Assembly (NCBI GenBank): GCA_045590715.1 | Contig: JAZNRO010000024.1 | Location: 1-43,674 of the forward strand | Direction: 5' to 3' | DNA length: 43,674 nucleotides | From: Eubacteriales bacterium | Lineage (GTDB): Bacteria > Bacillota > Clostridia > Oscillospirales > SIG627 | Part shown: piece after piece, positions 8,362 to 36,141 of the stretch | Layout of the letters: the number at the start of each line of letters is the position of its first letter | Position numbering within the stretch: the first letter of the stretch is position 1 | Notes under the pieces: generated by a model | The model's input: only the letters and a program-made list of their open reading frames with translations | Told to the model about the DNA's origin: nothing | Database searches by the model: none | Translations under genes and position numbers: made by a program

Positions 8362-9579
8362 ATGAAACAAATGAAACGGGTCCTTTGTATTTTTCTTGCC
8401 CTCTTTTTGCTTTTTGGTGCCGTGTCTTGCGGTGAAAAAGAAAAGAAGACCGAAACGGCGGAAGAAACAAAAACCGGAGAGTCGGAAAAAAAGGACGAAG
8501 AATTTCTGAATCAATTCTTAAGTGATTACAAGGCTGGAAAATACGACGATAAGAAGTATTTTAACTATGAAGATCTTTCTCTTTATTTTGACCTGGCTTC
8601 ATACAAAGGGATCTCTTATCCCGAAGATCCCATGATCAGCGAAGAGATAACGGATCAAAACGTGGAAGACTATATTGCCCAGATCTTTTTGGCGTCCGAA
8701 GTCAGTGACGACGATTATACCACTCTGACGGAAGGCGTGATCCAGCGCTACGATATGCTGACTCTGGATTACAAAGGGGTCATTGACGGGAAAGAAGCGA
8801 AAAACGCTACCGCCGAAGGGCAGTCTCTTCTGATCGGAAGCGGTTCCTTTATCAAGGGCTTTGAAGAAGGACTTATCGGCAAAAAAGTGGGAGAAGAGAT
8901 CGTTTTAAATCTGAAATTCTCTCCTTACTATCAGTCCGACGAGGTAAAGGGAAAGGATATTACCTTCTACGTGACGGTACACAAGATCCAAAGACCTACG
9001 ATCCCGGAATACAAGGTAGACGTGATCAATAAGGCTTATTCTACCACCTTAAAGGATATGGATGAAGCGAGAAAATGGCTGAAGGACATGCTTACCACCC
9101 AGGCCAAAAACAGCGCTTATTCCTATCTTGCTTCTTACCTGCAGGATGATATTCTCTCCCGCAGCACGGTAAAAGAATATCCGAAGAAGGAAATGGAACA
9201 TTTCGTGACCCATTACAAGGATTATTACTCCCAGTACGTGGAAGACGATCAGACCCTGGAAGATTTCTGCCGGGATTCTCTTGGTATCAGCTACGATGAA
9301 TTCCTAAAGGCGGCAGAGGATTATGCAAAGCAAGAGGTAGGGGTCAAGCTGATGCTTTCTTCCATTGCGGAAAAAGAAAATATCACTTGTACAAAAGAGC
9401 AGATGAGCGCTCTCATCAAGGGCCTTTACCAGACGGAAAACGACGGCTATTACGGAAGTCTTGAGTCCATGGTAAAGGATTATATGAACATTTACGGCGC
9501 CGATTACTTTGAAAATCAGGTTGTGGCAAATGCCGTAATGGAAGTAGTTGTGGCAAACGCCGTAAAAGAGGGTGTATGA
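8362..9579 (+). CDS. Lipoprotein with a trigger-factor-like FKBP PPIase domain and C-terminal chaperone domain; the ribosome-binding N-domain is replaced by a signal peptide
   Basis: Signal peptide with lipobox-like AVSC|GEK. The segment TLDYKGVIDGKEAKNATAEGQSLLIGSGSFIKGFEEGLIGKKVGEE matches the Tig PPIase core. I saw no GFRxGxxP ribosome-binding motif. Confidence 0.75.
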   Translation: MKQMKRVLCIFLALFLLFGAVSCGEKEKKTETAEETKTGESEKKDEEFLNQFLSDYKAGKYDDKKYFNYEDLSLYFDLASYKGISYPEDPMISEEITDQNVEDYIAQIFLASEVSDDDYTTLTEGVIQRYDMLTLDYKGVIDGKEAKNATAEGQSLLIGSGSFIKGFEEGLIGKKVGEEIVLNLKFSPYYQSDEVKGKDITFYVTVHKIQRPTIPEYKVDVINKAYSTTLKDMDEARKWLKDMLTTQAKNSAYSYLASYLQDDILSRSTVKEYPKKEMEHFVTHYKDYYSQYVEDDQTLEDFCRDSLGISYDEFLKAAEDYAKQEVGVKLMLSSIAEKENITCTKEQMSALIKGLYQTENDGYYGSLESMVKDYMNIYGADYFENQVVANAVMEVVVANAVKEGV

Positions 9580-10670
9580 GGAATTTTAAAATCTCTCTTT
9601 GTTTTCTCTTTGTGCTTTCCTTCCTTTTTCTTTCGGCAGACAGTTTCTTTTTGCCGAAAAAGCAGGAATTAAAGCCCGTGGAAAAAGTCCCCTATGATTA
9701 CGATCTCTCTTCTTATATTTCTCTAGGGGATCTGGATCAGCTTACGGCAGAGTACGAAGATCCTACAGTCTGCACGGAAAAAGAGATCGACCAGGCGATT
9801 TTCCGCATTTTGCTGGAAAAGGCTACCTTTACGGAAAAAAGCGTGCCTGCCGCCAGATACTATAAAGTAAAGATTGATTTTTCTATTGAAAAGGACGGCC
9901 AGATCCTTCCAACCTATACCCAAACGGATTACGAACTCATTATCGGCTATTCGGAAGAAAATGAAATCGAATATCTTCTGGGAGAAAAGCTCATGGGCGC
10001 GGTGATCGGGGAAGTCAGAAGGGTAAATTACACTTACCCGGAAGAACTTTTGGGCTCCGTTCTTTCCGGTCAAGAGGTAACGCTCTGCGCTAAAGTAAAA
10101 GGGGTCTACCCTTATGAACTTCCCACTTTAAACAATCGCACGGTGGGAGAGGTGTTTTCCGGCGCTTTCCAGACGGTCGATGAACTGCGGGAGTCGGTAA
10201 AACAGGACATTTTAAAAGAAAAAGTTTTGGCCCGGGCCAAAGCGGTCTGGCTGGCTCTTTTGGATCAGGTGCGGGTGCGCTCTTATCCGGAAGAGGAGCT
10301 TTCCGATTACAAGACTTTGTATCGGAAAAACTATGAAGAGATGGCTGAAAAGTACTCTTTAACCCTTTCTCAATTTGTAGAAAATTATCTGGAAACGGAT
10401 ATGGAAGGCTTTTTAGCCGAAGGGGAAGAGGCTGCCCGGGAAAAAGTGAAGAACGATATGATCTTCATTCAGCTGGTGCGGACCCTTAAAGTGACCTTGA
10501 GCGAAGAAGAGTACGAAGCCGGCGCACAAAAATATTTTCTGGAAGAAGAAAATGAATTTAATTCCTTCGAGGAATTTGAAGAATACTATACCAAAGAAAA
10601 TTTAGAGCAGAATATTCTTTGGGATAAGGCCCTGGGACTTTTGATTGAAAAAGTTCAGGCAAAGAAATAA
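9576..10670 (+). CDS. Secreted or membrane-anchored trigger-factor-like paralogue (degenerate PPIase core)
   Basis: The ATGA overlap with the upstream gene suggests translational coupling. It has an N-terminal hydrophobic signal (...FLFLSA|DS). It is clearly paralogous to the next gene (YDYDLS.Y, VKNDM.FIQ, L.EEEYEAG.Q.YF, ILWDK). Confidence 0.65.
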   Translation: MRNFKISLCFLFVLSFLFLSADSFFLPKKQELKPVEKVPYDYDLSSYISLGDLDQLTAEYEDPTVCTEKEIDQAIFRILLEKATFTEKSVPAARYYKVKIDFSIEKDGQILPTYTQTDYELIIGYSEENEIEYLLGEKLMGAVIGEVRRVNYTYPEELLGSVLSGQEVTLCAKVKGVYPYELPTLNNRTVGEVFSGAFQTVDELRESVKQDILKEKVLARAKAVWLALLDQVRVRSYPEEELSDYKTLYRKNYEEMAEKYSLTLSQFVENYLETDMEGFLAEGEEAAREKVKNDMIFIQLVRTLKVTLSEEEYEAGAQKYFLEEENEFNSFEEFEEYYTKENLEQNILWDKALGLLIEKVQAKK

Positions 10671-10680
10671 AGAGGATAAT

Positions 10681-11751
10681 ATGAAAAAAAAGATCTTGGC
10701 GCTGCTTTTTTCCTTTGTAATGCTTTTTTCTCTTTTCTCCTGCGGGGAAAAGACGGTAAAGCGTTACGACTACGATCTTTCCCAGTACGTGGACGTAGGG
10801 CAGATCGATCCTATTCGCTGTAAATTCGTTTCTCCGGATGTTATTACCGAGGAGGACGTGGATCACGCGGTCTTTCAGATCATGCTGGGGTATTCTGCTT
10901 TTGAAGAAAAAGAAGGCCCGGCAGAACAGTACGATCGGGTGAAGGCAGAGTATCAGATCCTTTATGAAGGAGAGCCTATTGATGAATATTCAAGCAGTGA
11001 ATACTATATTCTCATCGGTTATGAATCCGGCGGGGATATTGACTGGCTTTTGGGCCAGGCACTGATCGGCAAAAACAAAGGGGAAACCGCTTCCATTACC
11101 TATACCTTCCCCGAGAGCGATGTATCTCTGGGCGTTTGGGCAGGAAGAACGGTAGAAGCTACCGCCAAGGTGCTTGCGGTCTATGATTCCCATCCTCCGG
11201 AATGTACCGATGAATTCGTACAGAATATCGGTTCTTTTTCCTTTGGTACGGTGCTGGATTTCCGCCAGCAGTTAAGAGAGGATATCCTGGATCAGCGGGA
11301 AGCCGACAAAAAAGAAGCGGTAAAGAACGCCTTTCTCAGCGGCGTTACCGTGAAAAAGTATCCGGAAGCGGAGCTTCAGGCTTACGTGACCCGGTTTTTG
11401 GAGGAGATCAAGGCTTCCGCAGAGGAAATGGATATGACCCTTTCGGAGTATGCCAAAGAATACTTTGATATGACCGAAAGCGACCTTTCCAAGGCGGCTA
11501 TGGAGGATGCCAAGGAAAGAGTGAAAAACGATCTTGCCTGTATTCAGACCTCCCGCCTTTTAAAAACCACTTTGACGAAAGAAGAGTATGAAGCGGGCCT
11601 TCAGCGTTATTTCGAGTCAGAGGGCGAAGGATTTGAAACCGTAGAAGATTTTGAAAAGTATTATACCCGTGATTTTATGTACGAAAGTATTCTTTGGGAC
11701 AAGACCTTTGAAACGTTAGTGGAAAAAGCTGAAAATATCACAGAAGAATAA
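10681..11751 (+). CDS. Lipoprotein, trigger-factor-like paralogue (degenerate PPIase core)
   Basis: Start at ATG 10681 (MKKKILALLF...SLFSC|GEK, lipobox-like). It aligns by eye along its whole length with the 9576-10670 product. Confidence 0.7.
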   Translation: MKKKILALLFSFVMLFSLFSCGEKTVKRYDYDLSQYVDVGQIDPIRCKFVSPDVITEEDVDHAVFQIMLGYSAFEEKEGPAEQYDRVKAEYQILYEGEPIDEYSSSEYYILIGYESGGDIDWLLGQALIGKNKGETASITYTFPESDVSLGVWAGRTVEATAKVLAVYDSHPPECTDEFVQNIGSFSFGTVLDFRQQLREDILDQREADKKEAVKNAFLSGVTVKKYPEAELQAYVTRFLEEIKASAEEMDMTLSEYAKEYFDMTESDLSKAAMEDAKERVKNDLACIQTSRLLKTTLTKEEYEAGLQRYFESEGEGFETVEDFEKYYTRDFMYESILWDKTFETLVEKAENITEE

Positions 11752-12666: not shown

Positions 12667-12738
12667 ACAAGTTCACCTATTCTAAAGCATTATAAAAAAC
12701 GAAAGATCAAAAACTTTTTGTGATAGATCCAGTATAAG

Positions 12739-12776
12739 GCCAAAACCCGATCATTTCAAGGGTTTTGGCTTTTTTT
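12739..12776 (+). terminator. Orphan plus-strand hairpin terminator upstream of the phage-like operon
   Basis: 10-bp stem GCCAAAACCC / GGGTTTTGGC (12739-12748 and 12760-12769) followed by T7. No plus-strand gene lies upstream of it. Confidence 0.6.
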
Positions 12777-12822
12777 CTTGATTTTTTCTGAAAAAAGAAA
12801 CGAGAAAGAAGAAAAGATGTCA

Positions 12823-12852
12823 TTGCGTGTCAGTAAGGCTGTCGGGTATGAT
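12823..12852 (+). promoter_or_regulatory. Candidate sigma-A-type promoter of the phage-like operon
   Basis: TTGCGT (12823-12828), 18-nt spacer, TATGAT (12847-12852), 30 nt upstream of ATG 12882. The match is weak to moderate. Confidence 0.35.
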
Positions 12853-12881
12853 GCAGGCAAAGAAAACAACAAGGAGGCAAT

Positions 12882-14444
12882 ATGAACGAAAATCAAAAGA
12901 TTCTCACAGAGGATTTCAGACTTTTGGAACAGGGAAGAGCGTATAACCGAAAGATTTCTCTCTACGACACGGTAAATCGCAACGAAAGATTTTATCGGGG
13001 CGATCAGTGGCACGGAGTGGAAAAAGGCGATCTGCCCACACCGGTCTTTAATCTTTTCAAACGAGTGATCAATTACTTTGTATCCACCATTATGAGCCAG
13101 AAAATGTCTTTGCACTTTTCTGCAGAAGGTCTAAGCGGCCTTTTTGATCGGGAAAAGCGAAACCAGGTGGAAGAAGCTTGCAGACTTTTGACCCGTCACG
13201 CAAATTACCGTTTCGACCGGGATAAGATGGATCATCTTCTGACCAAGGGGCTATTGGATGCAGCGGTAACGGGAGATCTCTTTTTCTACGTTTACTGGGA
13301 TCCCAATAAAAGGACTTCCCAAGGCTTCTCCGGTGATTTTGTAACCACTTTGGTAGATAGCACCCAGGTCTTTTTCGGTGACGTAAATACGCCGGAAGTA
13401 GAAGAACAGCCCTATATTCTTTTAACCGGTAGAGAGCTTGTGGAAAACCTTCGAAAGGAAGCCATGGCAAACGGCGCTTCGGAAGAAGAGGTGAAAAAGA
13501 TCGTGGCGGATTCCGATACTGCGGAGCAGAGCGGGGATCTGGGCAAGGAAGAACTGGAAGGCACCAAGGCAAGCTTTGTGATCTGTCTTTATAAAAAGGA
13601 CGGAACGGTGCGTTTCCGTAAAAGCACCCGAAATCTTGTGGTGTCCCCGGAAAAAGATACGGGTCTGACCCTTTACCCGGTGGTACTGATGAACTGGGAG
13701 CAGGTGAAAAACAGTTATCACGGCCAGGCGGCGGCCACCAATCTTGTGGACAACCAGATCTACATCAACAAGGCCTTTGCCATGGTGATGAAGCATATGA
13801 TGGACGTATCCTTCTCCAAGGTCATGTACAACGCAAATCTCATTGACGAGTGGACCGGAGAGATCGGTGAGGCCATTGCAGTAAACGGTCCGGTAGAGCA
13901 GGCGGCTTACCGCATTGATCCCGGCAGTATGCAGGGTGGATTTCTGGACGTGATCAATATGACCATGGGCATTACAAAAGAGCTGATGGGCGCAACGGAC
14001 GCGGCGCTGGGTAACGTTCAGCCGGATAACACTTCGGCGATCATTGCCCTGCAGCAAAGCGCGGCGGTACCTTTGGAACTGCAGAAGAGAGCCCTTTACG
14101 GGGCAGTGGAACGGCTTGGTATGATCTGGCTTGATTTTATCCTTCATTACTATGATTCTGCCAGAGTAATGCTGTTCAGAGAAAAAGGAGAGCTGTTCGG
14201 CGGGACCTTGGATCTGGAGGAAATGAAGAATATTCTTTTTTCCTGCAACATCCAGGCCGGCGCTTCCAGTCACTGGAGTGAGATCGCGCAGATCACTACC
14301 CTGGATCGGCTTCTCACGGCTGGCGTTATTACTTTCTCCCAGTACTTAGAACGCCTTCCCGACGGCTATATTGCAAAGAGGGAAGAACTTTTGGAGGAAA
14401 CCAGAGAGAAAGAAGATCAAATGGATTTTCCGGCAGATGCCTGA
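12882..14444 (+). CDS. Phage portal protein-like
   Basis: 520 aa, sitting immediately upstream of scaffold-like and capsid genes. The N-terminal region (YDTVNRNERFYRGDQWHG...LPTPVFNLFKRVINYFVS) resembles portal-family N-termini as I recall them. RBS is AAGGAGG. Confidence 0.75.
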   Translation: MNENQKILTEDFRLLEQGRAYNRKISLYDTVNRNERFYRGDQWHGVEKGDLPTPVFNLFKRVINYFVSTIMSQKMSLHFSAEGLSGLFDREKRNQVEEACRLLTRHANYRFDRDKMDHLLTKGLLDAAVTGDLFFYVYWDPNKRTSQGFSGDFVTTLVDSTQVFFGDVNTPEVEEQPYILLTGRELVENLRKEAMANGASEEEVKKIVADSDTAEQSGDLGKEELEGTKASFVICLYKKDGTVRFRKSTRNLVVSPEKDTGLTLYPVVLMNWEQVKNSYHGQAAATNLVDNQIYINKAFAMVMKHMMDVSFSKVMYNANLIDEWTGEIGEAIAVNGPVEQAAYRIDPGSMQGGFLDVINMTMGITKELMGATDAALGNVQPDNTSAIIALQQSAAVPLELQKRALYGAVERLGMIWLDFILHYYDSARVMLFREKGELFGGTLDLEEMKNILFSCNIQAGASSHWSEIAQITTLDRLLTAGVITFSQYLERLPDGYIAKREELLEETREKEDQMDFPADA

Positions 14445-14472
14445 AAATAAAACAAATAAAAGGAGGTAAAAA

Positions 14473-14931
14473 ATGAAAAAGAAGAAAGCAAAAGAAAATC
14501 CGATTCCCGAAGCAGAACTTCTGGCGCTGATGACGGCCCAGGAAGAAGCATTGGAGGAGGAATCGGACCAGGTGGAAGAAGCGGAAGAAGAATCCCTTTC
14601 TCCCGAAGCGAAAATGCAGGCGGATATCACACTTTTCCACAGTCTGTTTCCTGACGTGAAGGCGCAGGACATTCCCAAAGAAGTCTGGGACAGCGTGGAA
14701 GAGGGCGAGAGTCTTGCGGCAAGTTACAGTCTGTATGCGGTGAAGACATTCCGAGAAGAGGAAAGAATTCGCAAAGTAAACGAGGAAAACGACAAGAAAG
14801 CCGCTCCTCGCGTACAGTCTGACCCCGGCGGAGAAGAATACTTCTCTCCCGAAGCGGTAAAACAAATGACCCGGGCGGAGATCCGGAAAAACTACAACAA
14901 AATTTTAACTTCCATGGAAAAATGGAACTGA
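14473..14931 (+). CDS. Putative scaffolding protein
   Basis: 152 aa, highly acidic with helical-looking composition. The call rests on its position between the portal and capsid genes. I recognised no family. Confidence 0.45.
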   Translation: MKKKKAKENPIPEAELLALMTAQEEALEEESDQVEEAEEESLSPEAKMQADITLFHSLFPDVKAQDIPKEVWDSVEEGESLAASYSLYAVKTFREEERIRKVNEENDKKAAPRVQSDPGGEEYFSPEAVKQMTRAEIRKNYNKILTSMEKWN

Positions 14932-14949
14932 AAGAAAGGATGAAAAAAT

Positions 14950-15789
14950 ATGTCAATTCAACATTTTATTCCCACTCTTTGGAGTGAAACTCTTTATTCC
15001 GAACTGGAAAAAGACTACGTAGGCGTACGTCTTTGTAACCGCGAATTCGAAGGCGAGATCCGCGGTGAAGGCGATCGCGTAAAGATCTGCGGCATTGATA
15101 ACGTTTCTGTTTTTAATTATCACAGAGACGAGGATATGCCTTCTGCCGAAGTACTTAGCGCAAAGGAAAGAACCCTGATCATCGATCAGGCGAAAGGCTT
15201 TAATTTCTGCCTGGATTCCGTAGACGCCGCCCAGGCAAAAAAAGGCGTGATGCAGCAGGCAATGAAGCAGGCTTCCAACGCTTTGGCGGACGTAGCGGAC
15301 AGATTCGTTTATAGCCTTTACGATTCCAGCGTTGCTACCGTTGAGTACGAAAACGTGTCCAGCGCAACGATCCTTCCCGTTATTGCAGAGGCAAGAAAAA
15401 TTCTGATGCAGAACAACGTTCCCAGTTCTGCTAAACTTTCTCTGGAGGTTTCTCCTGCCATTGAAGAAAAACTGCTTCTTGCCAACGTTCTTCGCGCTAC
15501 CGATAATACTGCGGCGCTGGGCAACGGGTATCTTGGCTCTGTGATGGGCTTTGATATTTACGTGAGCAACAATCTCCACTATGACGTTGAGAACGATATG
15601 TACCGTTGTGTTGCAAGAACCGGCAGAGCCATTGCTTTTGCCGAACAGCTTTCCGAAGTGAAGGCGTATGAGCCCGAGCTTCGTCACGGCGATGCGGTAA
15701 AGGGTCTGCACCTTTACGGCGCAAAGATCATTTACCCCAAGGAAATGGTATATCTGAATCTGAGCCCTGCTTTGCAGGAAACCCTTTAA
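14950..15789 (+). CDS. Major capsid protein, P22-coat-like (HK97-fold) family
   Basis: 279 aa. The N-terminus HFIPTLWSETLYSELEKDYVGVRLCNREFEGEIRGEGDRVKI matches the characteristic FIPE.WS...N.dYEGEI...GDtVKI pattern of P22-coat-type capsid proteins (from memory). Confidence 0.72.
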   Translation: MSIQHFIPTLWSETLYSELEKDYVGVRLCNREFEGEIRGEGDRVKICGIDNVSVFNYHRDEDMPSAEVLSAKERTLIIDQAKGFNFCLDSVDAAQAKKGVMQQAMKQASNALADVADRFVYSLYDSSVATVEYENVSSATILPVIAEARKILMQNNVPSSAKLSLEVSPAIEEKLLLANVLRATDNTAALGNGYLGSVMGFDIYVSNNLHYDVENDMYRCVARTGRAIAFAEQLSEVKAYEPELRHGDAVKGLHLYGAKIIYPKEMVYLNLSPALQETL

Positions 15790-15819
15790 TTTTTTTCAAT
15801 AAGGAAGGGAGATGCCGAC

Positions 15820-16203
15820 GTGAAGACAGGCAATGAAATTTTCAAAAGAAGTCTTTCCTTAATGGGTGAAACCTTGCAGGAAGACAGCGAAAGTCTAAAA
15901 GAGAAGTCGGTGGAACTGATCAATCTGATCTTATCCCAACTTTATGAACTGGAGCTCTCCCTTCGGGGAGAGCGAAGGGATGAGGCAGAAAGCGTTCCCC
16001 AGATCACGTCTCTTTCCGACACCATCGGTTTTTCCGAACCGATCCTTTTCACCTTGATGCCTTTGGCGCTTGCCGGATATCTCTTAAACGAAGAGGAACC
16101 GGATCGAAGCAGTTTCTATTTGAGCCTTTATCATACGGAAAGAGAACTTGTGCGGGCCCGGTGTAAAAGAAGCCGTAGGCACAAAATTTCCCGCAGTTTT
16201 TAA
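15820..16203 (+). CDS. Hypothetical protein; positional analogue of a head-completion/adaptor protein (P22 gp4-like position)
   Basis: GTG start preceded by GGAAGGGAG. 127 aa and helical. The functional call rests on synteny only. Confidence 0.35.
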   Translation: MKTGNEIFKRSLSLMGETLQEDSESLKEKSVELINLILSQLYELELSLRGERRDEAESVPQITSLSDTIGFSEPILFTLMPLALAGYLLNEEEPDRSSFYLSLYHTERELVRARCKRSRRHKISRSF

Positions 16204-16212
16204 GGAGGCGTT

Positions 16213-17928
16213 ATGGCAAGAGATTTTACACTGGATATTACCCGTTTTCTGGGAATCGATAATTCTTCCGAGCATCCCGAAAGTCTTTCGGACGGGGTAA
16301 GTCCCGATATGGTGAATCTGCAGGTGACTCCGGATTACCATTTGAAGCGTAGAGACGGCTTTTATTCCGTTTCCACAAAAACGAAACCGATTCGCGGAAT
16401 CTATTACGTTGTGATGGGGGAAGAAAATCGGTATCTTGCTGTGGCGGGGGACACGCTGTATCATTCCGCTCAAGGCTTTTTGGCTCTTACCCCCGTGGAA
16501 GGGGTAGTTCCGGGAACGGGAAACGTTACGTTTTTCCATTTTTACTCAAAGGTCTATCTTTTGACCGGAGATGGAATTTTGGAATATGACGGAGAAAACC
16601 TCCGGGTTCCCCAGCCCTATATTCCTACCCTGATGATCTCGACCAATGCAGATGGAAGCGGTGTGGTTTACGAAGAAGTAAATCTTCTGACCAGAAAAGT
16701 AAAACAGCTTTTTTCCGGAGATGATCGGTCTTGCCGTTTTGTTCCCATTACCACTGATATCAAAAAGGTGGATTATGTGAAGGTGGACGGTGTGGAAATG
16801 GAGCCGAATACTTACATCTGGGATGATGGAGATCTGGTTTTCATTCTTGGCGCAGCTCCCAGAAAAGGCGTTGATAATATTGAGATCCAATATGAGCTGG
16901 AAGGGGAGGATCTGTCCCCCGTAATTTTAAAAAGCCGATTTGCTACCGCTTTCGGCGGTGCCAGCGATACCAGAGCTTTTCTTTACGGAAATGCAGAAAA
17001 TCCTGCTGTTCGGTATCATAGCGGTATTGTGGACGGAAAACCGGAGTTCACCTATTTCCCTGAAACCGCGGTTTCTCTGGTTGGTAACGGAGACCCTATT
17101 ACCTCTATCCTTTGTCATTATGACAGACAACTGATCTTTACTACTTCTGCGGCATATTATTCTTATTTGGAGTATATGACCGGTACAGATGGAAAACTGG
17201 TGACGGCTTTTCCGGTATTTCCGTTGAATGATGAAAGAGGTAACTGCCCTTCGGGACAGGCAGTTTTAATCGAAAATACGCCCTACACCTTAACGGAAAA
17301 CGGTTTGTTTCAATGGATTTCCACAAACATACGGGACGAACGAAATGCAAAATCGATTTCTGAACCCATCGATCGGTCTTTGCGAAACGAAAAAACCGAT
17401 GAGGCAGTTCTTTTCAATCGCAAAGATACGCAGGAATTGTACGTTTGCATCGGCAGTCACTGCTATGTTTATAATTACCGTTTGAAACTGTTTTACTATT
17501 ATGATCTGAACGGCTTTCAGCCCCGGGGATTTGTGCAAGGGGAAAAGGATCTGTTTTTCTTTGCGGGAAATTCCATTTTCAAAATGGCCGGAAATACCGA
17601 TGAAGCGTGGCCCATTTTTACCCGCTGGCGGTCCCGCTTTTTTGATTTTTCCAAAGCCGGTTTGCAGAAGAAACTCTTTGGTATGACACTGTATTTGAAA
17701 GCGGAAGAAGGGGAAGATTTTCGGATCGGGATCCGGGAGGATCACGAAGAAATGTCGGCCAAGAAAATTCTTTCCGTTTTGCCCGCCAAAGACAGTGCGA
17801 AAAAAAGGGTTTTTATGAAAAAGCGGCGTTTTCGTCTTTTGGAAGTGGAGATCGAAACAGACGGTAGGAAGCCATTCTCCCTTTTGGGTCTTTCTCTGAA
17901 GGGAAGGATCACAGATCGGGAAGATTAA
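16213..17928 (+). CDS. Hypothetical beta-rich protein; positional analogue of a podovirus tail hub/nozzle (P22 gp10-like position)
   Basis: 571 aa with an AAGGAGG RBS. Repeated short hydrophobic/aromatic-Gly strands (LYHSAQG, VYLLTGDG, LIFTTSAAYY, LYVCIGSHCYVY, LFFFAGNSIF) suggest a beta-propeller or beta-sandwich. I recognised no family. Confidence 0.35.
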   Translation: MARDFTLDITRFLGIDNSSEHPESLSDGVSPDMVNLQVTPDYHLKRRDGFYSVSTKTKPIRGIYYVVMGEENRYLAVAGDTLYHSAQGFLALTPVEGVVPGTGNVTFFHFYSKVYLLTGDGILEYDGENLRVPQPYIPTLMISTNADGSGVVYEEVNLLTRKVKQLFSGDDRSCRFVPITTDIKKVDYVKVDGVEMEPNTYIWDDGDLVFILGAAPRKGVDNIEIQYELEGEDLSPVILKSRFATAFGGASDTRAFLYGNAENPAVRYHSGIVDGKPEFTYFPETAVSLVGNGDPITSILCHYDRQLIFTTSAAYYSYLEYMTGTDGKLVTAFPVFPLNDERGNCPSGQAVLIENTPYTLTENGLFQWISTNIRDERNAKSISEPIDRSLRNEKTDEAVLFNRKDTQELYVCIGSHCYVYNYRLKLFYYYDLNGFQPRGFVQGEKDLFFFAGNSIFKMAGNTDEAWPIFTRWRSRFFDFSKAGLQKKLFGMTLYLKAEEGEDFRIGIREDHEEMSAKKILSVLPAKDSAKKRVFMKKRRFRLLEVEIETDGRKPFSLLGLSLKGRITDRED

Positions 17929-17944
17929 AGAAAAGGAGTGTATT

Positions 17945-18781
17945 ATGGCACAATCAGAAAAAGTAAAAGAACTGCTGCGCCGCCTGGAAGAAGGAACGGG
18001 CGAGATTTATGCCCGTTATGAAAGCCTGATCCGGGCCAGCGATGCAGGGTATGACGGAAAGATTGCAGAGCTGGAAAACGATTACCAGAGAGCGGCCGGG
18101 CAGGTTTCGGCCCAAGCAAAAATCGATCGCAAGAATACTTTGGAGAAGATGGCGGACGCCGGGTATTTAAACTCCGGTGAGACCGTGCAGGCAACCATTG
18201 CGGCAAATGCCAATCGCGCCGCTGCGCTATCCGCTCTTTCTGTACAGAAAGCCAAGGATAAGAAGGCTTATTTGCAGGAAAAGGATAAGGCCAGAGCAAG
18301 CCTTTCTCTCCAGGGAGAAAAAGAGGTTACAAATTTGAAAAAAGAAGTGACCGATGCGGTGCGAGAGCAGGAAAATCTGGATCGTGAGTTCGAGGCCCAG
18401 GAGAGACAGAGAGCTTACGAGCAGGCTCTCAAGGAAGAAAATCTGAAGCTGGAAAAGGAGCTTTCTGCAGCCAGGATCGCACAGATGGCGGCGCAGACCC
18501 GTCAGGCAGAGCAGGAAACGGCTTTGGCGGCGGCTGCCCAGGTTCAGAAAGAGGCAGAAAGCAAGAAAAATAAAGGTATTCAGCCGAAAAAGACACCTTA
18601 TGAATACGTGGATGATATTATCGAGCAGAACACCACGTATAATAAGAAAAAGAAGTATAAGGTGATCGACCGAAAGGCCATCTTGCTTGCGATTTCCGCC
18701 ATTGTAAAAGATACCAAGATCTCTTACGATTACCGATATGAAATGTATTTGTACGGAAAGAGTCTGGGATATGTGACTTAA
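17945..18781 (+). CDS. Hypothetical coiled-coil protein; positional analogue of a portal plug/needle (P22 gp26-like position)
   Basis: 278 aa. There is a long Ala/Glu/Lys/Gln-rich heptad-like region (residues about 20-200), then a small globular C-terminal domain. RBS is AAAGGAG. Confidence 0.3.
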   Translation: MAQSEKVKELLRRLEEGTGEIYARYESLIRASDAGYDGKIAELENDYQRAAGQVSAQAKIDRKNTLEKMADAGYLNSGETVQATIAANANRAAALSALSVQKAKDKKAYLQEKDKARASLSLQGEKEVTNLKKEVTDAVREQENLDREFEAQERQRAYEQALKEENLKLEKELSAARIAQMAAQTRQAEQETALAAAAQVQKEAESKKNKGIQPKKTPYEYVDDIIEQNTTYNKKKKYKVIDRKAILLAISAIVKDTKISYDYRYEMYLYGKSLGYVT

Positions 18782-18787
18782 AGAAAA

Positions 18788-18829
18788 AAACTACTCTGCT
18801 TTACCGGGTAAGGCAGGGTAGTTTTTTTA
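18788..18829 (+). terminator. Rho-independent terminator ending the phage-like operon
   Basis: Stem CTACTCTGC / GCAGGGTAG (18791-18799 and 18813-18821) followed by T7. Confidence 0.7.
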
Positions 18830-18945
18830 TCTTTTGTATCCGGCTTTTGAAAAAGTGAGAGAGGGAAGAGGGGAAAACGAAAAAAACACTTTTCTTCTCT
18901 TTCTTTTTGTTGTATAATGAAAAAAGAACAAACAAAGGAGCCGAA

Positions 18946-20865: not shown

Positions 20866-23800
20866 ATGATGAAGAAATTTCTGTCAAAATCGCTTGTACT
20901 TTTGCTTGCTTTTTTGATGGTATTTTCCTGCTTCGGCACCGCGGTTTTTGCAACCGATGACGTTGCCCTTGCCGAGGAAAATGCTGAAGAAGAAAAGAAC
21001 AACAGCAAATTACAGGAGATTGAGGAGCTTTTAAACTCCAACGACTATGCCGAATATCGCCTTCTGTATCAGGGCGCGAAAAACGGTGAAGACGATATCG
21101 TAATTTCCGGAAAGGATTTTGATCCGGAAAAGACCACCGCTACCGTTTTCAAGGACAAGTACCTTGGCAGCGAGAGTGAGGTCGTTATGATTGGCGATAC
21201 CGGTGACGTTACCTGGAATTTCGAGGTGAAGAAGACCGGTAACTATCATATCCAGATCACTTACGCTCCCATCGTTTCTTATGACGGAGATCAAGACGGC
21301 AAAGCTGATTTTGTCAGCAATTCCGCCACCATTAAGCGCGCGCTTTTGATCGACGGATCTTATCCTTTTAAGCAGTCCCGTTATATTGAATTGAACCGCG
21401 TATGGAAGGATACTATGGGCGGCGAAGGTTCTAATGACAGAGGATTCATTTTGGATAACGACGGAAACGAGATCAAACCCAACAAGGCTGAAAATCCCGT
21501 TTGGCGTACCATTATGGCTTCCGACTCTACCGGCTATATCGTGGATCCCTTCCTTTATTATGTAGAAGAAGGTGTTCATACCATTTCTCTTGCCGAAGTG
21601 CAGGAAGTTTGCGCGATTAAAGAAATTCGCATTTTCTACGATGATTCTTCCATCACTTACGAAGAATATCTGAAGGAAAACGATAAGAAGGCAGATAAAG
21701 CTGCCGGCGCAGAAATCGAAGTGATCGAAGCAGAAATTCCCAGTTTTACTTCCTCCAACATTATATATCCCATTTACGACCGCTCTTCTGCGGCTACCCA
21801 GCCTCAGAGCGCATACAATATTTACTTGAACGCGATTGGCGGCGAAAAATGGCAGACTGCCGGCCAGTGGATCTCCTGGGACTTTGAAGTTCCGGAAGAT
21901 GGCTACTACACCATCAGCCCCCGCTTCCTTCAGTCTTTTGCAGAGGGTATGTACGTATCCCGCGAACTGAAGATCGACGGCAAAACTCCCTTTGATGAAG
22001 CAAAGACCCTCCGCTTTAAATACAGTGACGAATGGCAGCTTCTCCCTCTGACTGACGGTGTGATCGATGAAAAGACCGGAAAAGAGAGAGCACTGAAGTT
22101 CTATTTGACCAAGGGAACTCACGAAATGGAAATGTGGGTTGTACTGGGTGAAATGGCAGACATTCTCAATACCGTTGAAAAAGCACTTTCCCACGTAAAC
22201 GAATGCTACCTGCAGATTCTGATGCTGACCGGTTCTGAACCTGATGAATACAGAGATTATCAGTTCAGCCGTCTAATGCCCGAAGTACTGAAGGGCATGG
22301 CAGAAGAGTCCAAGGTTCTCTATGAAGTTTCCGCTCAGCTGGAAGCCATCAACGGAACCAAAGGTTCTGACTCTGTAACCCTTGACAACGTAGCACTTCT
22401 TCTGGAAAGAATGAGCGGCGACGAAGATCTGATCGCTCCCAACTTTACCGAACTGAAAGACTACATCGGTAACCTGGGTACCTGGATCATGACCGCTCGT
22501 AACCAGCCTCTGGAATTTGACTACATCCTGGTTTCTCCCGCGGAAGACATGAAAGAAAAGGATGCTTCCGATTACTTTGATGATAAAGGCTTTGATGCCG
22601 ACGCTTCCTTCTGGGATGCTCTTTCTTACGAATTTGAACAGTTCATCATGAGCTGGATCAGCGACTACTCCAGCTACGGTGTGCGCACCCAGGAAGGCTC
22701 TGAAAACTACGCTTCCGTTGAAGTTTGGACCACCTCCGGTCGTGACCAGTCTACGATCATGAGATCTCTGATCAGTGATACCTTCACTTCTCAGAAGAAC
22801 ATTGCAGTAGACTTAAAACTGGTAGCAGCAGGTTCTCTGCTTCCCGCTACTCTTTCCGGCTCCGGCCCTGACGTGAATATGACCCTGGGCTCCGGCACGG
22901 TTATCAACTACGCGATCCGTTCCGCTGTTCTTCCCATCAATCCCGAGGGATACGTTGATGAAGAAGACGATGATGAAGAAACCCGCGAATTTAATGCAAA
23001 ATGCCGCGAGATCTTCTCTGATTACGAGCAGGTTGTTTCCTGGTTCGATGAAGCAGCTACCATTCCTCTGGAACTTTACGGTGTTGCTTACGCCCTCCCC
23101 GAAACCGAAAGCTTCTCAATGCTCTTCTACCGCAGTGACATTCTCCTGCAGCTGGGTCTTGATATCCCCGAAACCTGGGACGACGTTTATAACATGCTTC
23201 CCACCCTTCAGACCAATAACCTGGACTTCGGTTACCACGAATCCCTGGCAGGTCTTCTGATCATGCTGTATCAGCGCGGCCAGCAGCTTTACAGCAAGCC
23301 CTTGGAAGGCGATAAAGACGGTCTGACCGGCGCAATGAGTATCAACCTTGATTCCAACGAAGCCCTTGAAACTTTCAAGGAAATGTGTGAACTTTACACC
23401 ATGTACGGTTTCCCCTATTCTTACAGCTTTGTAAACCGTTTCCGTACCGGTGAAATGCCCATTGGTGTACAGGGTTACACCACCTACTCTCAGCTGACCA
23501 TCTTCGCTCCCGAACTTCGCGGTCTTTGGGGCTTTACCGTTCTTCCCGGTACTGTTCGTACCGATGAAAACGGCAATACCTTCGTCGATCACACTGCCGA
23601 TACCACCGTAACCGGTATCGCAATGATGAGAGACTGCAAAGAAATCGCAGCCGCTTGGGAATTTATGAAGTGGTGGGTTTCCACAGAAACTCAGTCCACC
23701 TACGGTCAGGAATATTACGCACTGCTCGGTGCTTCCGGTCAGTACGCTACTGCCAACATTGAAGCCCTCTATTCTATGAGCTGGACAGCAGACGAAAGAA

Positions 23801-24039
23801 AAGAACTGCACAACCAGTTTGATTGGCTTCAGGCTACTCCCGAGATGCCCGGTGGTTATATCGTTGCTCGTTACGTTGAATTTGCATTCCTTGCCGCTTA
23901 CAACGATGACAAGGATCCGGTAGAATCCATGCTGGAGTATATCGATGCGATCAACTCCGAGCTTACCAGAAAGCGCGGCGAGTTTGACCTGCCCACTCTG
24001 GAAAACTACGAAGACTACATGGCACAGCAAAAAGCTTAA
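20866..24039 (+). CDS. Giant extracellular solute-binding protein: signal peptide, two CBM-like beta-sandwich modules, helical linker, family-1-type sugar SBP domain
   Basis: 1057 aa. There are two internally similar units (GDVTWNFEVKKTGNYHIQITY...LLIDG..PF...GVHTISL and GQWISWDFEVPEDGYYTISPRF...LKIDGKTPF...GTHEMEMWV) of CBM6/35-like pattern. The C-terminal about 440 aa has SBP blocks (VEVWTTSG, SGSGPDV, YALPETESFSMLFYRSDIL..LGLDIPETWDDV, VLPG). Confidence 0.7.
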   Translation: MMKKFLSKSLVLLLAFLMVFSCFGTAVFATDDVALAEENAEEEKNNSKLQEIEELLNSNDYAEYRLLYQGAKNGEDDIVISGKDFDPEKTTATVFKDKYLGSESEVVMIGDTGDVTWNFEVKKTGNYHIQITYAPIVSYDGDQDGKADFVSNSATIKRALLIDGSYPFKQSRYIELNRVWKDTMGGEGSNDRGFILDNDGNEIKPNKAENPVWRTIMASDSTGYIVDPFLYYVEEGVHTISLAEVQEVCAIKEIRIFYDDSSITYEEYLKENDKKADKAAGAEIEVIEAEIPSFTSSNIIYPIYDRSSAATQPQSAYNIYLNAIGGEKWQTAGQWISWDFEVPEDGYYTISPRFLQSFAEGMYVSRELKIDGKTPFDEAKTLRFKYSDEWQLLPLTDGVIDEKTGKERALKFYLTKGTHEMEMWVVLGEMADILNTVEKALSHVNECYLQILMLTGSEPDEYRDYQFSRLMPEVLKGMAEESKVLYEVSAQLEAINGTKGSDSVTLDNVALLLERMSGDEDLIAPNFTELKDYIGNLGTWIMTARNQPLEFDYILVSPAEDMKEKDASDYFDDKGFDADASFWDALSYEFEQFIMSWISDYSSYGVRTQEGSENYASVEVWTTSGRDQSTIMRSLISDTFTSQKNIAVDLKLVAAGSLLPATLSGSGPDVNMTLGSGTVINYAIRSAVLPINPEGYVDEEDDDEETREFNAKCREIFSDYEQVVSWFDEAATIPLELYGVAYALPETESFSMLFYRSDILLQLGLDIPETWDDVYNMLPTLQTNNLDFGYHESLAGLLIMLYQRGQQLYSKPLEGDKDGLTGAMSINLDSNEALETFKEMCELYTMYGFPYSYSFVNRFRTGEMPIGVQGYTTYSQLTIFAPELRGLWGFTVLPGTVRTDENGNTFVDHTADTTVTGIAMMRDCKEIAAAWEFMKWWVSTETQSTYGQEYYALLGASGQYATANIEALYSMSWTADERKELHNQFDWLQATPEMPGGYIVARYVEFAFLAAYNDDKDPVESMLEYIDAINSELTRKRGEFDLPTLENYEDYMAQQKA

Positions 24040-24065
24040 TCTAAAAGTAAGGAGAGGATTTTCTC

Positions 24066-25016
24066 ATGTCTCAAAAGACAACAACAGCAAAAGCGCCTGT
24101 CTCAAGAAAAGACATGACCAAGTGGCAGTGGACACTGAAGGAAATGAAGAATAACAAGACCGGTTATTTCCTTTTGGCTCCGTTCTATATTATTTTCTTC
24201 ATTTTTACCGTATTTCCTGTTATTTTGTCGATCTTTTTCAGTTTGACAGACTTTAACATGCTTGAAACACCAAATATGGTTTGGTTTGATAACTATATCC
24301 GTCTGTTCCTGGATGACGATATCTTCCTGTTATCCGTAAAGAATACCCTGGTATTTGCAGCTATCACTGGTCCCGGCTCGTACCTTCTGTCCCTTATCAT
24401 GGCATGGTTTATCAACGAGCTGCCCCCCAAGATCCGTGCGATCATGACACTGATCTTCTATGCGCCCAGTATTTCCGGTAACGTTTACATGGTATGGACC
24501 TACATTTTCTCTGCAGACTCCCACGGTTTCTTGAACGGTACTTTGATGGATCTGGGTCTGATTACAACGCCTATCGCGTTTCTGAAAGACCCCACCTACA
24601 TTATAGCAATCGTTATTATCGTAGCCCTCTTGACTTCTCTGGGTACCTCCTTCCTTACCTTTATTGCAGGTTTCCAGGTTGTTGACCGCTCTCTCTATGA
24701 GGCGGCTGCTGTGGACGGCGTTAAAAACCGTTGGCAGGAGCTTTGGTTTATTACCATGCCGTATATGAAACCGCAGATGATGTTCGGTGCGGTAATGGCA
24801 ATTACCAACTCCTTCGGTTTTGGTTCGGTTATTACCGGTCTGGTAGGCTTCCCGTCTCCCGACTACTGTGCACACACCATCATGCACCATCTGGACGACT
24901 ACGGCGGATCCCCTTTTGAAATGGGTTATGCATCTACCATTGCAGTGGTACTGTTCTTTATGATGATCGGTTCCAATATGCTGGTTCGTAAACTTCTCGG
25001 AAAGGTTGGTAAGTGA
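24066..25016 (+). CDS. Carbohydrate ABC transporter permease (MalF/UgpA-type)
   Basis: 316 aa with 6 TM segments. EAA-loop is YEAAAVDGVKNRWQELWFITMPYMKP. Confidence 0.9.
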   Translation: MSQKTTTAKAPVSRKDMTKWQWTLKEMKNNKTGYFLLAPFYIIFFIFTVFPVILSIFFSLTDFNMLETPNMVWFDNYIRLFLDDDIFLLSVKNTLVFAAITGPGSYLLSLIMAWFINELPPKIRAIMTLIFYAPSISGNVYMVWTYIFSADSHGFLNGTLMDLGLITTPIAFLKDPTYIIAIVIIVALLTSLGTSFLTFIAGFQVVDRSLYEAAAVDGVKNRWQELWFITMPYMKPQMMFGAVMAITNSFGFGSVITGLVGFPSPDYCAHTIMHHLDDYGGSPFEMGYASTIAVVLFFMMIGSNMLVRKLLGKVGK

Positions 25017-25017
25017 T

Positions 25018-25890
25018 ATGGCAAAATTAAGAATTCGCAAATCCAACCACGCTATGAACCGCTCTTTGGGCGGCGATATCGGTATCAACGCTGTCCTTCT
25101 TATCATGGGCGCGTTCATGTTCCTTCCTATGCTTTATACTGTCATGCAGTCCTTAAAGCCTCTGGACGAACTCTGGATGTATCCCCCTCGTTTCTTCGTT
25201 AGAAACCCCACCTTGGTTAACTTTAAGACCCTGTTTAACCTGATGAGCACCTCTTGGGTGCCCTTCTCCCGTTACATTTTTAACACCGCGTTCGTATCCA
25301 TCTTGGGTACCTTCGGTAACGTTATTCTGTCTTCTATGGCAGCTTATTCTCTGGCAAAAATGAAGTTCCCCGGAAAAGCCTTCCTTTTCCAGGTTGTTGT
25401 TTACTCCCTGATGTTCCACACCACAGTAACTTCTATCACCAACTTCTGGACCATGAGTAAACTGGGCCTGGTTGATACCTATTGGGCAAGAATCATTCCT
25501 GCCTGCGCAACCAGTATGGGTCTTTACCTGATGAAGCAGTTTATGGAAACCTCCGTTCCGGATTCCGTTCTGGAATCTGCAAGACTTGACGGTTCCACTG
25601 AGCTGCGCGTGTTCTGGCAGATCGCGATGCCTATGGTTAAGCCCGCTTGGCTGACCCTGATCGTATTCTGCTTTAAGGATCTGTGGAATGCAGGTTCTTC
25701 CATTTACATTTATTCCGAGCAGTACAAGAGTTTCAACTACGCCATTGGTCAGATCGTTACCGGTGGTGTATCCCGTCAGGGCGCCGGCGCCGCATCTACC
25801 GTTATTATGATGATGGTACCGATCCTGGTATTCGTTGTTACCCAGAGTAACATTATTGAAACCATGTCTTCTTCCGGTATGAAAGATTAA
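25018..25890 (+). CDS. Carbohydrate ABC transporter permease (MalG/UgpE-type)
   Basis: EAA-loop is ESARLDGSTELRVFWQIAMPMVKP. I preferred ATG 25018, but the in-frame TTG at 25006 is also possible. Confidence 0.9.
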   Translation: MAKLRIRKSNHAMNRSLGGDIGINAVLLIMGAFMFLPMLYTVMQSLKPLDELWMYPPRFFVRNPTLVNFKTLFNLMSTSWVPFSRYIFNTAFVSILGTFGNVILSSMAAYSLAKMKFPGKAFLFQVVVYSLMFHTTVTSITNFWTMSKLGLVDTYWARIIPACATSMGLYLMKQFMETSVPDSVLESARLDGSTELRVFWQIAMPMVKPAWLTLIVFCFKDLWNAGSSIYIYSEQYKSFNYAIGQIVTGGVSRQGAGAASTVIMMMVPILVFVVTQSNIIETMSSSGMKD

Positions 25891-25908
25891 GAAAAGGAGA
25901 AAAGCAAG

Positions 25909-28074: not shown

Positions 28075-28091
28075 GAAAGGAGGTACCTTGA

Positions 28092-30941: not shown

Positions 30942-30959
30942 GGAAAGGAGAGGTGAAAA

Positions 30960-31976: not shown

Positions 31977-31993
31977 GAAAGGAGGACAAATAG

Positions 31994-36071: not shown

Positions 36072-36104
36072 TTGACAATTCCTGCAAAAGAAGAATGATA
36101 GAAT
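36072..36104 (+). promoter_or_regulatory. spoIIE promoter with over-long 21-nt spacer (Spo0A-dependent type)
   Basis: TTGACA (36072-36077), 21-nt spacer, TGa-TAGAAT (36096-36104). TTTGACA at 36071-36077 is one mismatch from the 0A-box complement TTCGACA. Confidence 0.5.
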
Positions 36105-36141
36105 GATTTTCCAAATCTTAGAAAAGACGGGAAGTGTAACG

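Follow-up and report, generated by a model that had tools for sequence, protein, structure and literature searches.

A probable head-neck operon of a dispersed, podovirus-type gene transfer agent-like element in uncultured Clostridia

What do six adjacent phage-type genes do in a clostridial chromosome in which none of their neighbours is phage-like? The question is raised by contig JAZNRO010000024.1 of an Eubacteriales bacterium (assembly GCA_045590715.1), of which the whole stretch of 43,674 nucleotides was analysed (hereafter, the window) and which carries, at positions 12882-18781, a compact operon encoding a portal, a capsid and four further proteins. A preliminary description of this DNA had presented the operon as an orphan counterpart of the late genes of phage P22 and had proposed three origins for it: a prophage remnant not yet decayed, a domesticated particle, or a capsid-encoding satellite. 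The analysis reported here makes it likely that the six genes encode the head and neck of a dispersed, podovirus-type element resembling a gene transfer agent (GTA), derived from a phage and fixed in the chromosome. The evidence comes from the identity of the encoded proteins, the conservation of the locus in 19 other species, the finding of a terminase at a second locus in relatives and a promoter motif common to these loci.

The six open reading frames (ORFs) lie on the + strand and were all recovered with the coordinates and sizes first described (520, 152, 279, 127, 571 and 278 aa), as was their tight packing within the range of 9-30 nt, the successive intergenic spacings being 28, 18, 30, 9 and 16 nt. 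A purine-rich Shine-Dalgarno sequence precedes the start codon of each of the six genes, and an intrinsic terminator made of a 20-bp stem and a T-run (18785-18827, annotated as 18785..18837, + strand) closes the operon after the 278-aa gene. In base composition and codon usage the cluster is indistinguishable from its neighbours: its GC content is 0.476 versus 0.478, its GC content at third codon positions (GC3) falls inside the host range and its relative synonymous codon usage (RSCU) correlates with that of the neighbours at r = 0.84, which bears out the host-like codon usage noticed earlier by eye.

Three of the six proteins could be identified. The first gene (12882..14444, + strand) encodes a 520-aa portal protein matching PF16510 (P22_portal, 1.1e-15; 57.7 bits for a cut-off of 26.1) and phrog_156 (9.5e-29); a search of PDB sequences with this protein alone gave nothing useful. 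The third gene (14950..15789, + strand) encodes the major capsid protein, 279 aa long, with a minimal HK97 fold akin to that of gp6 of mycobacteriophage Che8. It matches PF25209 (9.4e-10) and phrog_267 (2.8e-36), and its family profile aligns with Che8 gp6 (PDB 8E16) over the full length (residues 1-269, E 4.6e-38). All Foldseek matches of an AlphaFold2 (AF2) model built from a shallow alignment are HK97-fold capsids or encapsulins, Che8 gp6 being the best with 27% identity; with a pLDDT of only 58.6 and low confidence outside residues 100-230, this model is good for the HK97 fold class only. The capsid had initially been called P22-coat-type, an assignment that has to be abandoned: hhalign against P22 gp5 gave a probability of 0.2, Pfam yielded no P22 coat family and the protein is devoid of an I-domain. 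The fifth gene (16213..17928, + strand) encodes a 571-aa protein which is, by its modelled fold, a podovirus tail nozzle or hub of the P22 gp10 / T7 gp12 type. The AF2 model has a pLDDT of 92.3 and a pTM of 0.88, and its Foldseek matches in the PDB include the Pa223 tail (1.7e-21), P22 gp10 (8EAP_D, 1.7e-17, TM 0.72), Sf6 and T7 gp12. By sequence, this protein matches phrog_3287, a virion structural protein family (1e-11), and a PDB profile search gave a weak N-terminal match only. Structure comparison recovered the HK97 fold for the capsid and the gp10 fold for the nozzle, the portal being recognized through PF16510. A long ORF also runs antisense to the capsid gene (14953-15711, - strand), with equivalents in 24 loci, and others lie opposite the portal gene; these antisense ORFs of 250-370 aa are open across many species and are most likely shadow ORFs.

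For the other three proteins, roles can be proposed from gene position. The acidic 152-aa protein (14473..14931, + strand) is a putative scaffolding protein whose gene sits between those of portal and capsid in all classes of locus described below and whose C-terminal two-thirds is conserved; Pfam, PHROG and NCBIfam scans returned no informative family for it. The 127-aa helical protein (15820..16203, + strand), whose gene (o127) always adjoins the nozzle gene, even at rearranged class B and C loci, is a putative portal-nozzle adaptor. The last gene (17945..18781, + strand), o278, encodes a 278-aa protein which, in the alignment of relatives, consists of three parts. Both ends are conserved, the N-domain with invariant G73 and G78 within a "..SGE.." motif and the C-domain (YRYEMYLYGKSLGY); between them lies a charged coiled coil whose length varies, the whole protein spanning 242-319 aa in relatives. 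Its gene always closes the structural block, 3' of the fibre and M15 peptidase genes where those occur, and this conserved position suggests a candidate distal tail, plug, needle or ejection protein. Neither the 127-aa nor the 278-aa protein has a family or PDB match, and hhalign found no similarity to P22 gp4 and gp26, respectively (probabilities <=0.1, for a profile compared with a single sequence, so that very remote homology is still possible). Across all six proteins, the NCBIfam scan gave no meaningful match.

The capsid has 2148 relatives in databases. The best 120 of them, each about 278 aa in length, grade smoothly within 58-76% identity, and the named ones among these 120 come from Clostridia, Oscillospiraceae or Ruminococcaceae metagenome-assembled genomes (MAGs), many on contigs of 50-150 kb. 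In a scan of one genome per species, relatives were found encoded in 362 GTDB species genomes; 80 of these loci were fetched, and clustering the ORFs of all loci revealed four arrangements. All genomes examined are uncultured MAGs. Class A comprises the window and 19 species-level genomes, whose capsids are 65-76% identical to that of the window. Its order is portal, scaffold, capsid, o127, nozzle and o278, usually preceded by three trigger-factor-like genes and a lysR gene on the opposite strand, and followed by rnhA, mnmA and a solute-binding protein gene. Class A' keeps this order and adds a glycine-rich fibre gene (PF21722, phrog_863/14469). Class B is rearranged (portal, o127, nozzle, scaffold, capsid, fibre, M15 peptidase, o278) and lies between GntR/ABC genes and a GH94 gene. 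In class C, with capsids 47-54% identical to that of the window, the genes of the small (TerS) and large (TerL) terminase subunits stand directly 5' of the head genes. In its subclass C1, host genes for membrane proteins and sigma factors flank a compact stretch of about 10 kb that runs from a LexA-like repressor gene on the opposite strand through TerS, TerL, portal, scaffold, capsid, o127, nozzle, holin, amidase-LysM and fibre to a coiled-coil protein gene. No integrase or replication module was found at class A, A', B or C loci, those of classes A, A' and B being checked within 10 kb of the cluster. As a side observation, C1 loci (L064, L073, L080 and others) are flanked by a LexA/cI-like repressor (Peptidase_S24) and, at the opposite end, by an ECF-type sigma factor, and are possibly SOS-inducible all-in-one GTA-like elements of Ruminococcus-labelled MAGs.

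The cluster is a conserved host locus under purifying selection. All six frames, noted as intact in the window, are likewise intact in every assessable class A locus (18 of 18 for the portal), although synonymous sites are near saturation. In class A the ratio of non-synonymous to synonymous divergence (dN/dS) lies at 0.08-0.26 overall and at 0.05-0.15 when only the closest genome pairs are taken. Median dN amounts to 0.11 for the capsid, the most conserved gene of the cluster, and 0.19 for the portal, both slower than the neighbouring mnmA, lysR and rnhA, whose values are 0.39, 0.29 and 0.27. Genome pairs that differ more in the flanking host genes tend to have a higher dN in portal, nozzle, o127 and o278 as well (Spearman rho 0.4-0.8 between pairwise dN values), a relation that is descriptive only, as pairs are non-independent; capsid dN shows no such correlation, probably because capsid distances hardly vary. 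When the interval from lysR to rnhA was compared across relatives, synteny was mostly kept, with neither a full prophage nor a frameshift signal in assessable loci. Intactness, low dN/dS and the tracking of the flanking genes together rule out a recent deletion derivative and argue against a mobile satellite. As for true phage contigs in IMG/VR, they have only the capsid in common with the cluster, at 35-48% identity. The closer IMG/VR matches (L084-L095, catalogued as UViGs) are 4-10-kb fragments of such chromosomal clusters listed as viral contigs.

The regions upstream of the operon are informative as well. Alignment of the 300 nt preceding the class A portal genes revealed a sole conserved block, about 50 nt before the start codon, which has the features of a promoter/operator. 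In the window it occupies 12818..12852 (+ strand) and consists of TGTCATTGCGTGTCAG (12818-12833), a 13-nt spacer and the -10-like hexamer TATGAT (12847-12852). The consensus reads TGTCATTGnnTGKCAG-12/13 nt-TAnnnT or, in pattern form, TGTCATTGNNTGKCAG-N12-13-TANNNT; two TGTCA direct repeats 10 bp apart surround a weak -35-like TTGCGT. A generic sigma-70 scan did not flag this promoter, because its -35 is atypical. At <=3 mismatches the motif matches the window at 12818-12833 only. At <=2 mismatches the 16-mer occurs 33 times in 2.27 Mb of fetched loci, all but three times 5' of a portal gene of class A, A' or B, where it is retained whatever the left flank. Two of the three remaining copies precede a separate TerS gene (L164, L165), and the third, on the - strand of a viral contig (L158) and devoid of a clear -10-like hexamer, is apparently a chance match. 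More divergent copies stand 5' of TerS in L036, L236 and L237, which brings the TerS motif to five of five genomes. With <=4 mismatches allowed, all 42 class A, A' and B loci carry the motif, with core positions 91-100% conserved, and class C3 loci have a related TGTCAC-N4-TGGCAC followed by a -10 upstream of TerS. The LysR protein encoded next door was considered as the dedicated regulator and is an unlikely candidate: the motif is kept where no lysR is adjacent (L003-L006, L008, L010) and at TerS, a place devoid of lysR, and it is a direct repeat, not a dyad of the type bound by LysR-type transcriptional regulators.

Just 5' of this promoter lies a hairpin followed by a T-run (12736..12779, + strand; stem-loop 12736-12772), of the form AAGGCCAAAACCC-11 nt-GGGTTTTGGC-TTTTTTT. 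Its span coincides in part with a promoter-like lysR site of the - strand, and in the alignment a terminator-like hairpin stands at the same place, just 5' of the conserved motif, in relatives with other left flanks. Both hairpins said to bracket the operon are real, but the upstream one terminates no cluster gene, because it is 5' of the operon promoter; it is probably an insulator of the operon against read-through.

The window had been described as lacking a terminase, and for the window this is correct: its annotation contains no terminase, fibre, lysis or integrase gene, a homologue search for TerS, TerL, fibre, holin and endolysin in the window was negative, and the window has no tRNA, no Rfam match and no att-like repeat accompanying the cluster. 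The orphan status, however, belongs to the window and not to the lineage, as TerS and TerL were found in all five class A genomes tested. In one of them (L036), an intact 455-aa TerL with the Walker A motif GGARGGGKS is encoded 5.6 kb to the right of the cluster, past unrelated genes. A search with this protein gave 6310 relatives, the best 120 of which form a graded series of 92-60% identity; the 13 source-named ones among these 120 are assigned to Clostridia or Clostridiales, to Ruminococcaceae/Oscillospiraceae or to a bioreactor metagenome. A second TerL (L164) lies on a 298,762-bp contig which also bears a class A cluster (L009), about 85 kb away, and three more (L165, L236, L237) are in the same assemblies as clusters L015, L019 and L011. 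Assembly GCA_017517325.1, among the most complete of class A, has both loci on a single 299-kb contig. The layout of this second locus is invariant in all five genomes: TerS, then tpk and thiT on the opposite strand, a thiamine pyrophosphate (TPP) riboswitch, TerL and a queG-like gene. TerS (129-131 aa) is intact and resembles P22 gp3 (PF16677 GP3_package 2.6e-6, phrog_606 5e-6). TerL is also intact, at 79-85% identity among the five genomes and with saturated dS. The interval upstream of TerL holds the TPP riboswitch for the divergent thiT-tpk.

Some further features of this locus were observed. The riboswitch (RF00059, 63.7 bits; L164 9855-9950, - strand) is also present in L036, L165, L236 and L237, just 5' of TerL. 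It governs the divergent thiT-tpk pair, which has come to lie between TerS and TerL by insertion. Owing to this insertion, TerL starts about 50 nt past the riboswitch and has only a weak Shine-Dalgarno sequence. Just 3' of TerL-queG, two genomes encode a conserved protein that measures 1170-1189 aa and matched nothing in Pfam (L164 12414-15926, L236 8500-12069), and in L164 its gene is followed by a sigma-70 r2/r4 gene.

The promoter motif gave access to a possible third locus. A scan of metagenome contigs for the motif plus its -10 returned 69 matches, most of them due to chance; one (L183) is another class A cluster behind the motif, and two other results proved informative. On contig L168, a promoter identical over 27 of 27 nt to that of the class A locus L010 is followed by three genes encoding an LL-H holin (PF09682, 1.2e-11), a small membrane protein and a collagen-repeat tail fibre. 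The fibre gene runs off the contig end, a host HAD-phosphatase gene adjoins, and an IMG/VR search with the fibre found no relatives. By analogy with operon II of FpGTA, the gene transfer agent of Faecalibacterium prausnitzii, L168 is plausibly a third, holin-fibre locus, its assignment to a class A genome being circumstantial. The common motif marks dispersed loci: the portal operon (42/42), TerS (5/5) and one holin-fibre contig. The other informative set consists of phage-like contigs from metagenome JAEIGA01 (L188, L190, L196, L198, L202, L205, L218). On these, the motif and its -10 sit between the terminator of an XRE-type helix-turn-helix (HTH) gene, to which they are antisense, and a gene encoding about 550 aa, after which comes a portal-like gene; a serine recombinase gene is nearby. 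The presence of the motif on phage-like contigs suggests the phage ancestor as the source of the control element. A second copy of the motif was also seen right after the class B cluster of L041, before a gene (13794-14492) for a 213-aa DnaD-like/winged-HTH protein (phrog_2514, 1.8e-27). This protein has no homologue in the other fetched loci and could be a leftover replication gene product or a candidate regulator.

Two features expected of a GTA were found in this lineage. Its structural genes are fixed, vertically inherited and under purifying selection, as seen in the synteny across 19 species, the dN/dS values and the correlation with flanking genes. Moreover, no replication, integration or lysogeny module lies within 10 kb of the cluster at class A, A' and B loci, and TerS and TerL occupy a second locus in the five relatives tested, a dispersal that would keep the element from packaging itself. 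A working mechanism can be proposed on this basis. A dedicated factor acting at TGTCATTGnnTGKCAG-12/13 nt-TAnnnT would switch on the operon together with the unlinked TerS gene, both of which carry the motif. A small procapsid would then be built from the portal, the Che8-type capsid and, as scaffold, the acidic protein; this procapsid TerS and TerL, encoded elsewhere in the five relatives, would fill by a headful mechanism. Since the gene set is scattered over at least 85 kb, the particle would be unable to carry its own genome, and its cargo would be host DNA. Closure of the portal and formation of a short tail may be the work of the gp10-like nozzle together with the 127-aa and coiled-coil proteins. 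Finally, release and targeting of the particles would fall to a further locus with genes for holin, endolysin and fibre, of which one contig with the same promoter offers an example.

Several points weigh against this GTA-like interpretation. Only the portal, capsid and nozzle identities are established, the other three roles being assigned by position only. The repeat geometry of the motif suggests an activator or a dedicated sigma factor, neither of which was identified, and no clear copy of the motif was found upstream of TerL. Three of the five pairings of terminase and capsid depend on MAG binning, the other two being on one contig or locus. The window represents a whole contig, TerS, TerL, lysis and fibre genes being known from relatives only, and the holin-fibre locus is placed by promoter identity alone, on a 3.2-kb metagenomic contig. 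Lastly, particles, packaging of host DNA and transfer are predictions for the lineage, made from its genes.

Could a domesticated particle serve another purpose than gene transfer, such as programmed lysis with release of extracellular DNA, killing of competitors, or delivery or storage of cargo? The evidence for domestication fits this explanation equally well, and a developmental role is conceivable in a spore-forming lineage (SpoIIE is encoded in the window). However, the conservation of TerS and TerL as a pair under selection implies that DNA is packaged, genes for portal, nozzle and fibre imply that it is delivered, and the closest characterized analogue packages host DNA pieces of about 9 kb, which makes a non-transfer role unlikely. 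An encapsulin nanocompartment was also considered and rejected; the operon has portal and nozzle genes and the lineage has a terminase. A capsid-forming phage satellite of the cf-PICI type, which builds its own heads and takes other functions from a helper phage, would account for a window with head and neck genes only, and IMG/VR does flag short fragments of such clusters as viral. This explanation is nevertheless very unlikely. No integrase, primase or other replication gene, att-like repeat or tRNA was found in the window or in the flanks of relatives, the latter inspected for integrase and replication genes within 10 kb; many species share the insertion context, with the cluster diverging in step with its flanking genes; and the cognate terminase is encoded by chromosomal single genes among thiamine genes rather than borne by a helper.

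The two remaining explanations keep the phage itself in view. That the cluster is a prophage remnant, decaying or recently truncated, was the first of the origins proposed at the outset, and the absence of essential phage modules from the window speaks for it. Yet the six frames are intact and syntenic in 19 other species despite near-saturated synonymous sites, dN/dS is low (0.05-0.25), the promoter is conserved to the base and no relative has a full prophage at the lysR-rnhA site, so that a remnant is extremely improbable. Conversely, a temperate phage might still be autonomous, with its genome rearranged into separate chromosomal pieces, as could be suspected from the motif on phage-like contigs beside XRE-type regulators, a serine recombinase and a portal-like gene, and from the DnaD-like gene behind the motif at one class B locus. 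This, too, is highly improbable, as the loci lie from 5.6 to at least 85 kb apart, have housekeeping genes between them, are stably inherited across species and are not accompanied by replication or integration genes. Among the origins first put forward, it is the domesticated, GTA-like particle which finds support in the conservation of the genes, their dispersal and their common promoter.

The rest of the window is host equipment, and the lysR gene is divergent from the operon, in keeping with the housekeeping right flank described previously. Its genes encode PEPCK, M16 peptidases, lgt, folD, three trigger-factor-like paralogues, the LysR protein, rnhA, mnmA, a large sugar-uptake locus, PNPase, SpoIIE and an anaerobic ribonucleotide reductase. 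The trigger-factor-like genes form a tandem triplet (8362-9579, 9576-10670 and 10645-11751) whose products have trigger-factor C-terminal and FKBP-like domains and resemble PrsA-like extracellular foldases. At least one member has a lipoprotein-type signal sequence (…LFSLFSCGEK), and the triplet is kept 5' of lysR in class A relatives. On the other side, the carbohydrate-uptake locus (20866-33013) encodes four permeases, a 1057-aa solute-binding protein whose N-terminal part is CBM35-like, a membrane protein of the NHL/Yip1 type and a DUF5696 protein of 949 aa; its beginning is conserved to the right of mnmA among class A relatives. The SpoIIE homologue (36103-38598; PF07228, PF19732) indicates an endospore-forming lineage.

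GTAs have long been known almost solely from Alphaproteobacteria. The loci described here provide candidate GTA gene sets for hundreds of uncultured species, and members of the family grade from a compact element to loci that are dispersed, illustrating how a phage becomes a host organelle. The sharply defined promoter motif is a handle for finding the remaining parts of the system and its regulator. These loci also carry a warning: virus-detection pipelines file fragments of them as viral contigs, and virome catalogues therefore contain host GTA-like loci.

The window operon was compared with known phages and GTAs. The late operon of P22 (genes 3-2-1-8-5-4-10-26) has the same succession of portal, scaffold, capsid, small protein, nozzle and coiled-coil protein, and the two share the portal family (PF16510), the gp10 nozzle fold and, in relatives of the window, a gp3-like TerS. 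The initial analogy with P22 thus stands for gene order, portal and nozzle, but fails for the coat, gp4 and gp26: the 279-aa capsid has neither an I-domain nor profile similarity to gp5, and the coincidence in order extends to no similarity with gp4 or gp26. In addition, the window operon has no ejection proteins and no tailspike. With Che8, an autonomous long-tailed phage (siphovirus), the capsid, matched over its full length by gp6 (8E16), is the only protein in common. Turning to GTAs, those of Alphaproteobacteria, RcGTA and CcGTA, are co-regulated by host-integrated regulators (CtrA, GafA). They resemble the window system in that their head and tail genes have been domesticated, are passed on vertically, lie scattered over several loci and are unable to self-package (introduction of PMC12946183). 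They differ from it in being siphovirus-like, with unrelated protein families and known regulators, whereas the window system is podovirus-like and its regulator was not identified.

One directly relevant paper was found in the literature, which describes FpGTA, the first podovirus-like GTA from the gut to be published (Borodovich et al., Nat Commun 2026; PMC12946183). FpGTA particles measure about 40 nm, have no visible tails and package host DNA pieces of 8.4-8.9 kb (PMC12946183). Operon I encodes both terminase subunits (TerS and TerL), the portal, a Prp-like protein, a capsid assigned to the "N4-gp56 family", a nozzle for which 8EAP was the match and a coiled-coil protein described as TolA-like, and operon II, 125 kb away, encodes a receptor-binding protein (RBP) and its anchor, a holin and an M15 endolysin (PMC12946183). 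Among the proteins reported are the portal RCH50851, TerL RCH50852, the coiled-coil protein RCH50844 and the nozzle RCH50846, annotated with 8EAP (PMC12946183). Like the window system, FpGTA is podovirus-type, chromosomally fixed in gut Clostridia (Oscillospirales), devoid of replication and integration genes and split into separate loci. The operons share the order of portal, small protein, capsid, several genes, nozzle and coiled-coil protein, both nozzles were matched to P22 gp10 (8EAP), and operon II, with its M15 peptidase, holin and fibre/RBP genes, parallels the class B genes and contig L168. The two systems differ in their capsids, "N4-gp56 family" in FpGTA versus Che8 gp6-like in the window (with no NCBIfam match at E <= 0.1), and in the protein encoded between portal and capsid, Prp-like versus acidic and scaffold-like. 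TerS and TerL head operon I of FpGTA, whereas in class A they are unlinked from the head genes and split by tpk-thiT, a more fragmented state. Particles and packaging have been demonstrated for FpGTA, to which the window system, a set of genes so far, was compared by description.

GTA-like packaging has also been reported in other Ruminococcaceae, Oscillospiraceae and Christensenellaceae, whose gene clusters were not identified (PMC12946183). A broader proposal, advanced here tentatively as a plausible but not yet favoured view, is that a large clade of uncultured gut and rumen Clostridia possesses a vertically inherited, podovirus-type GTA regulon, independent of FpGTA as far as a comparison by description goes. 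Such a regulon would have arisen independently because its capsid belongs to a different family. It would comprise at least three loci (head-neck genes, TerS/TerL interleaved with a thiamine operon, and holin-fibre genes) under one dedicated promoter and regulator, with stages ranging from the compact 10-kb form to the dispersed one. Its gene sets may be those behind the GTA-like packaging of Oscillospiraceae, Christensenellaceae and Ruminococcus.

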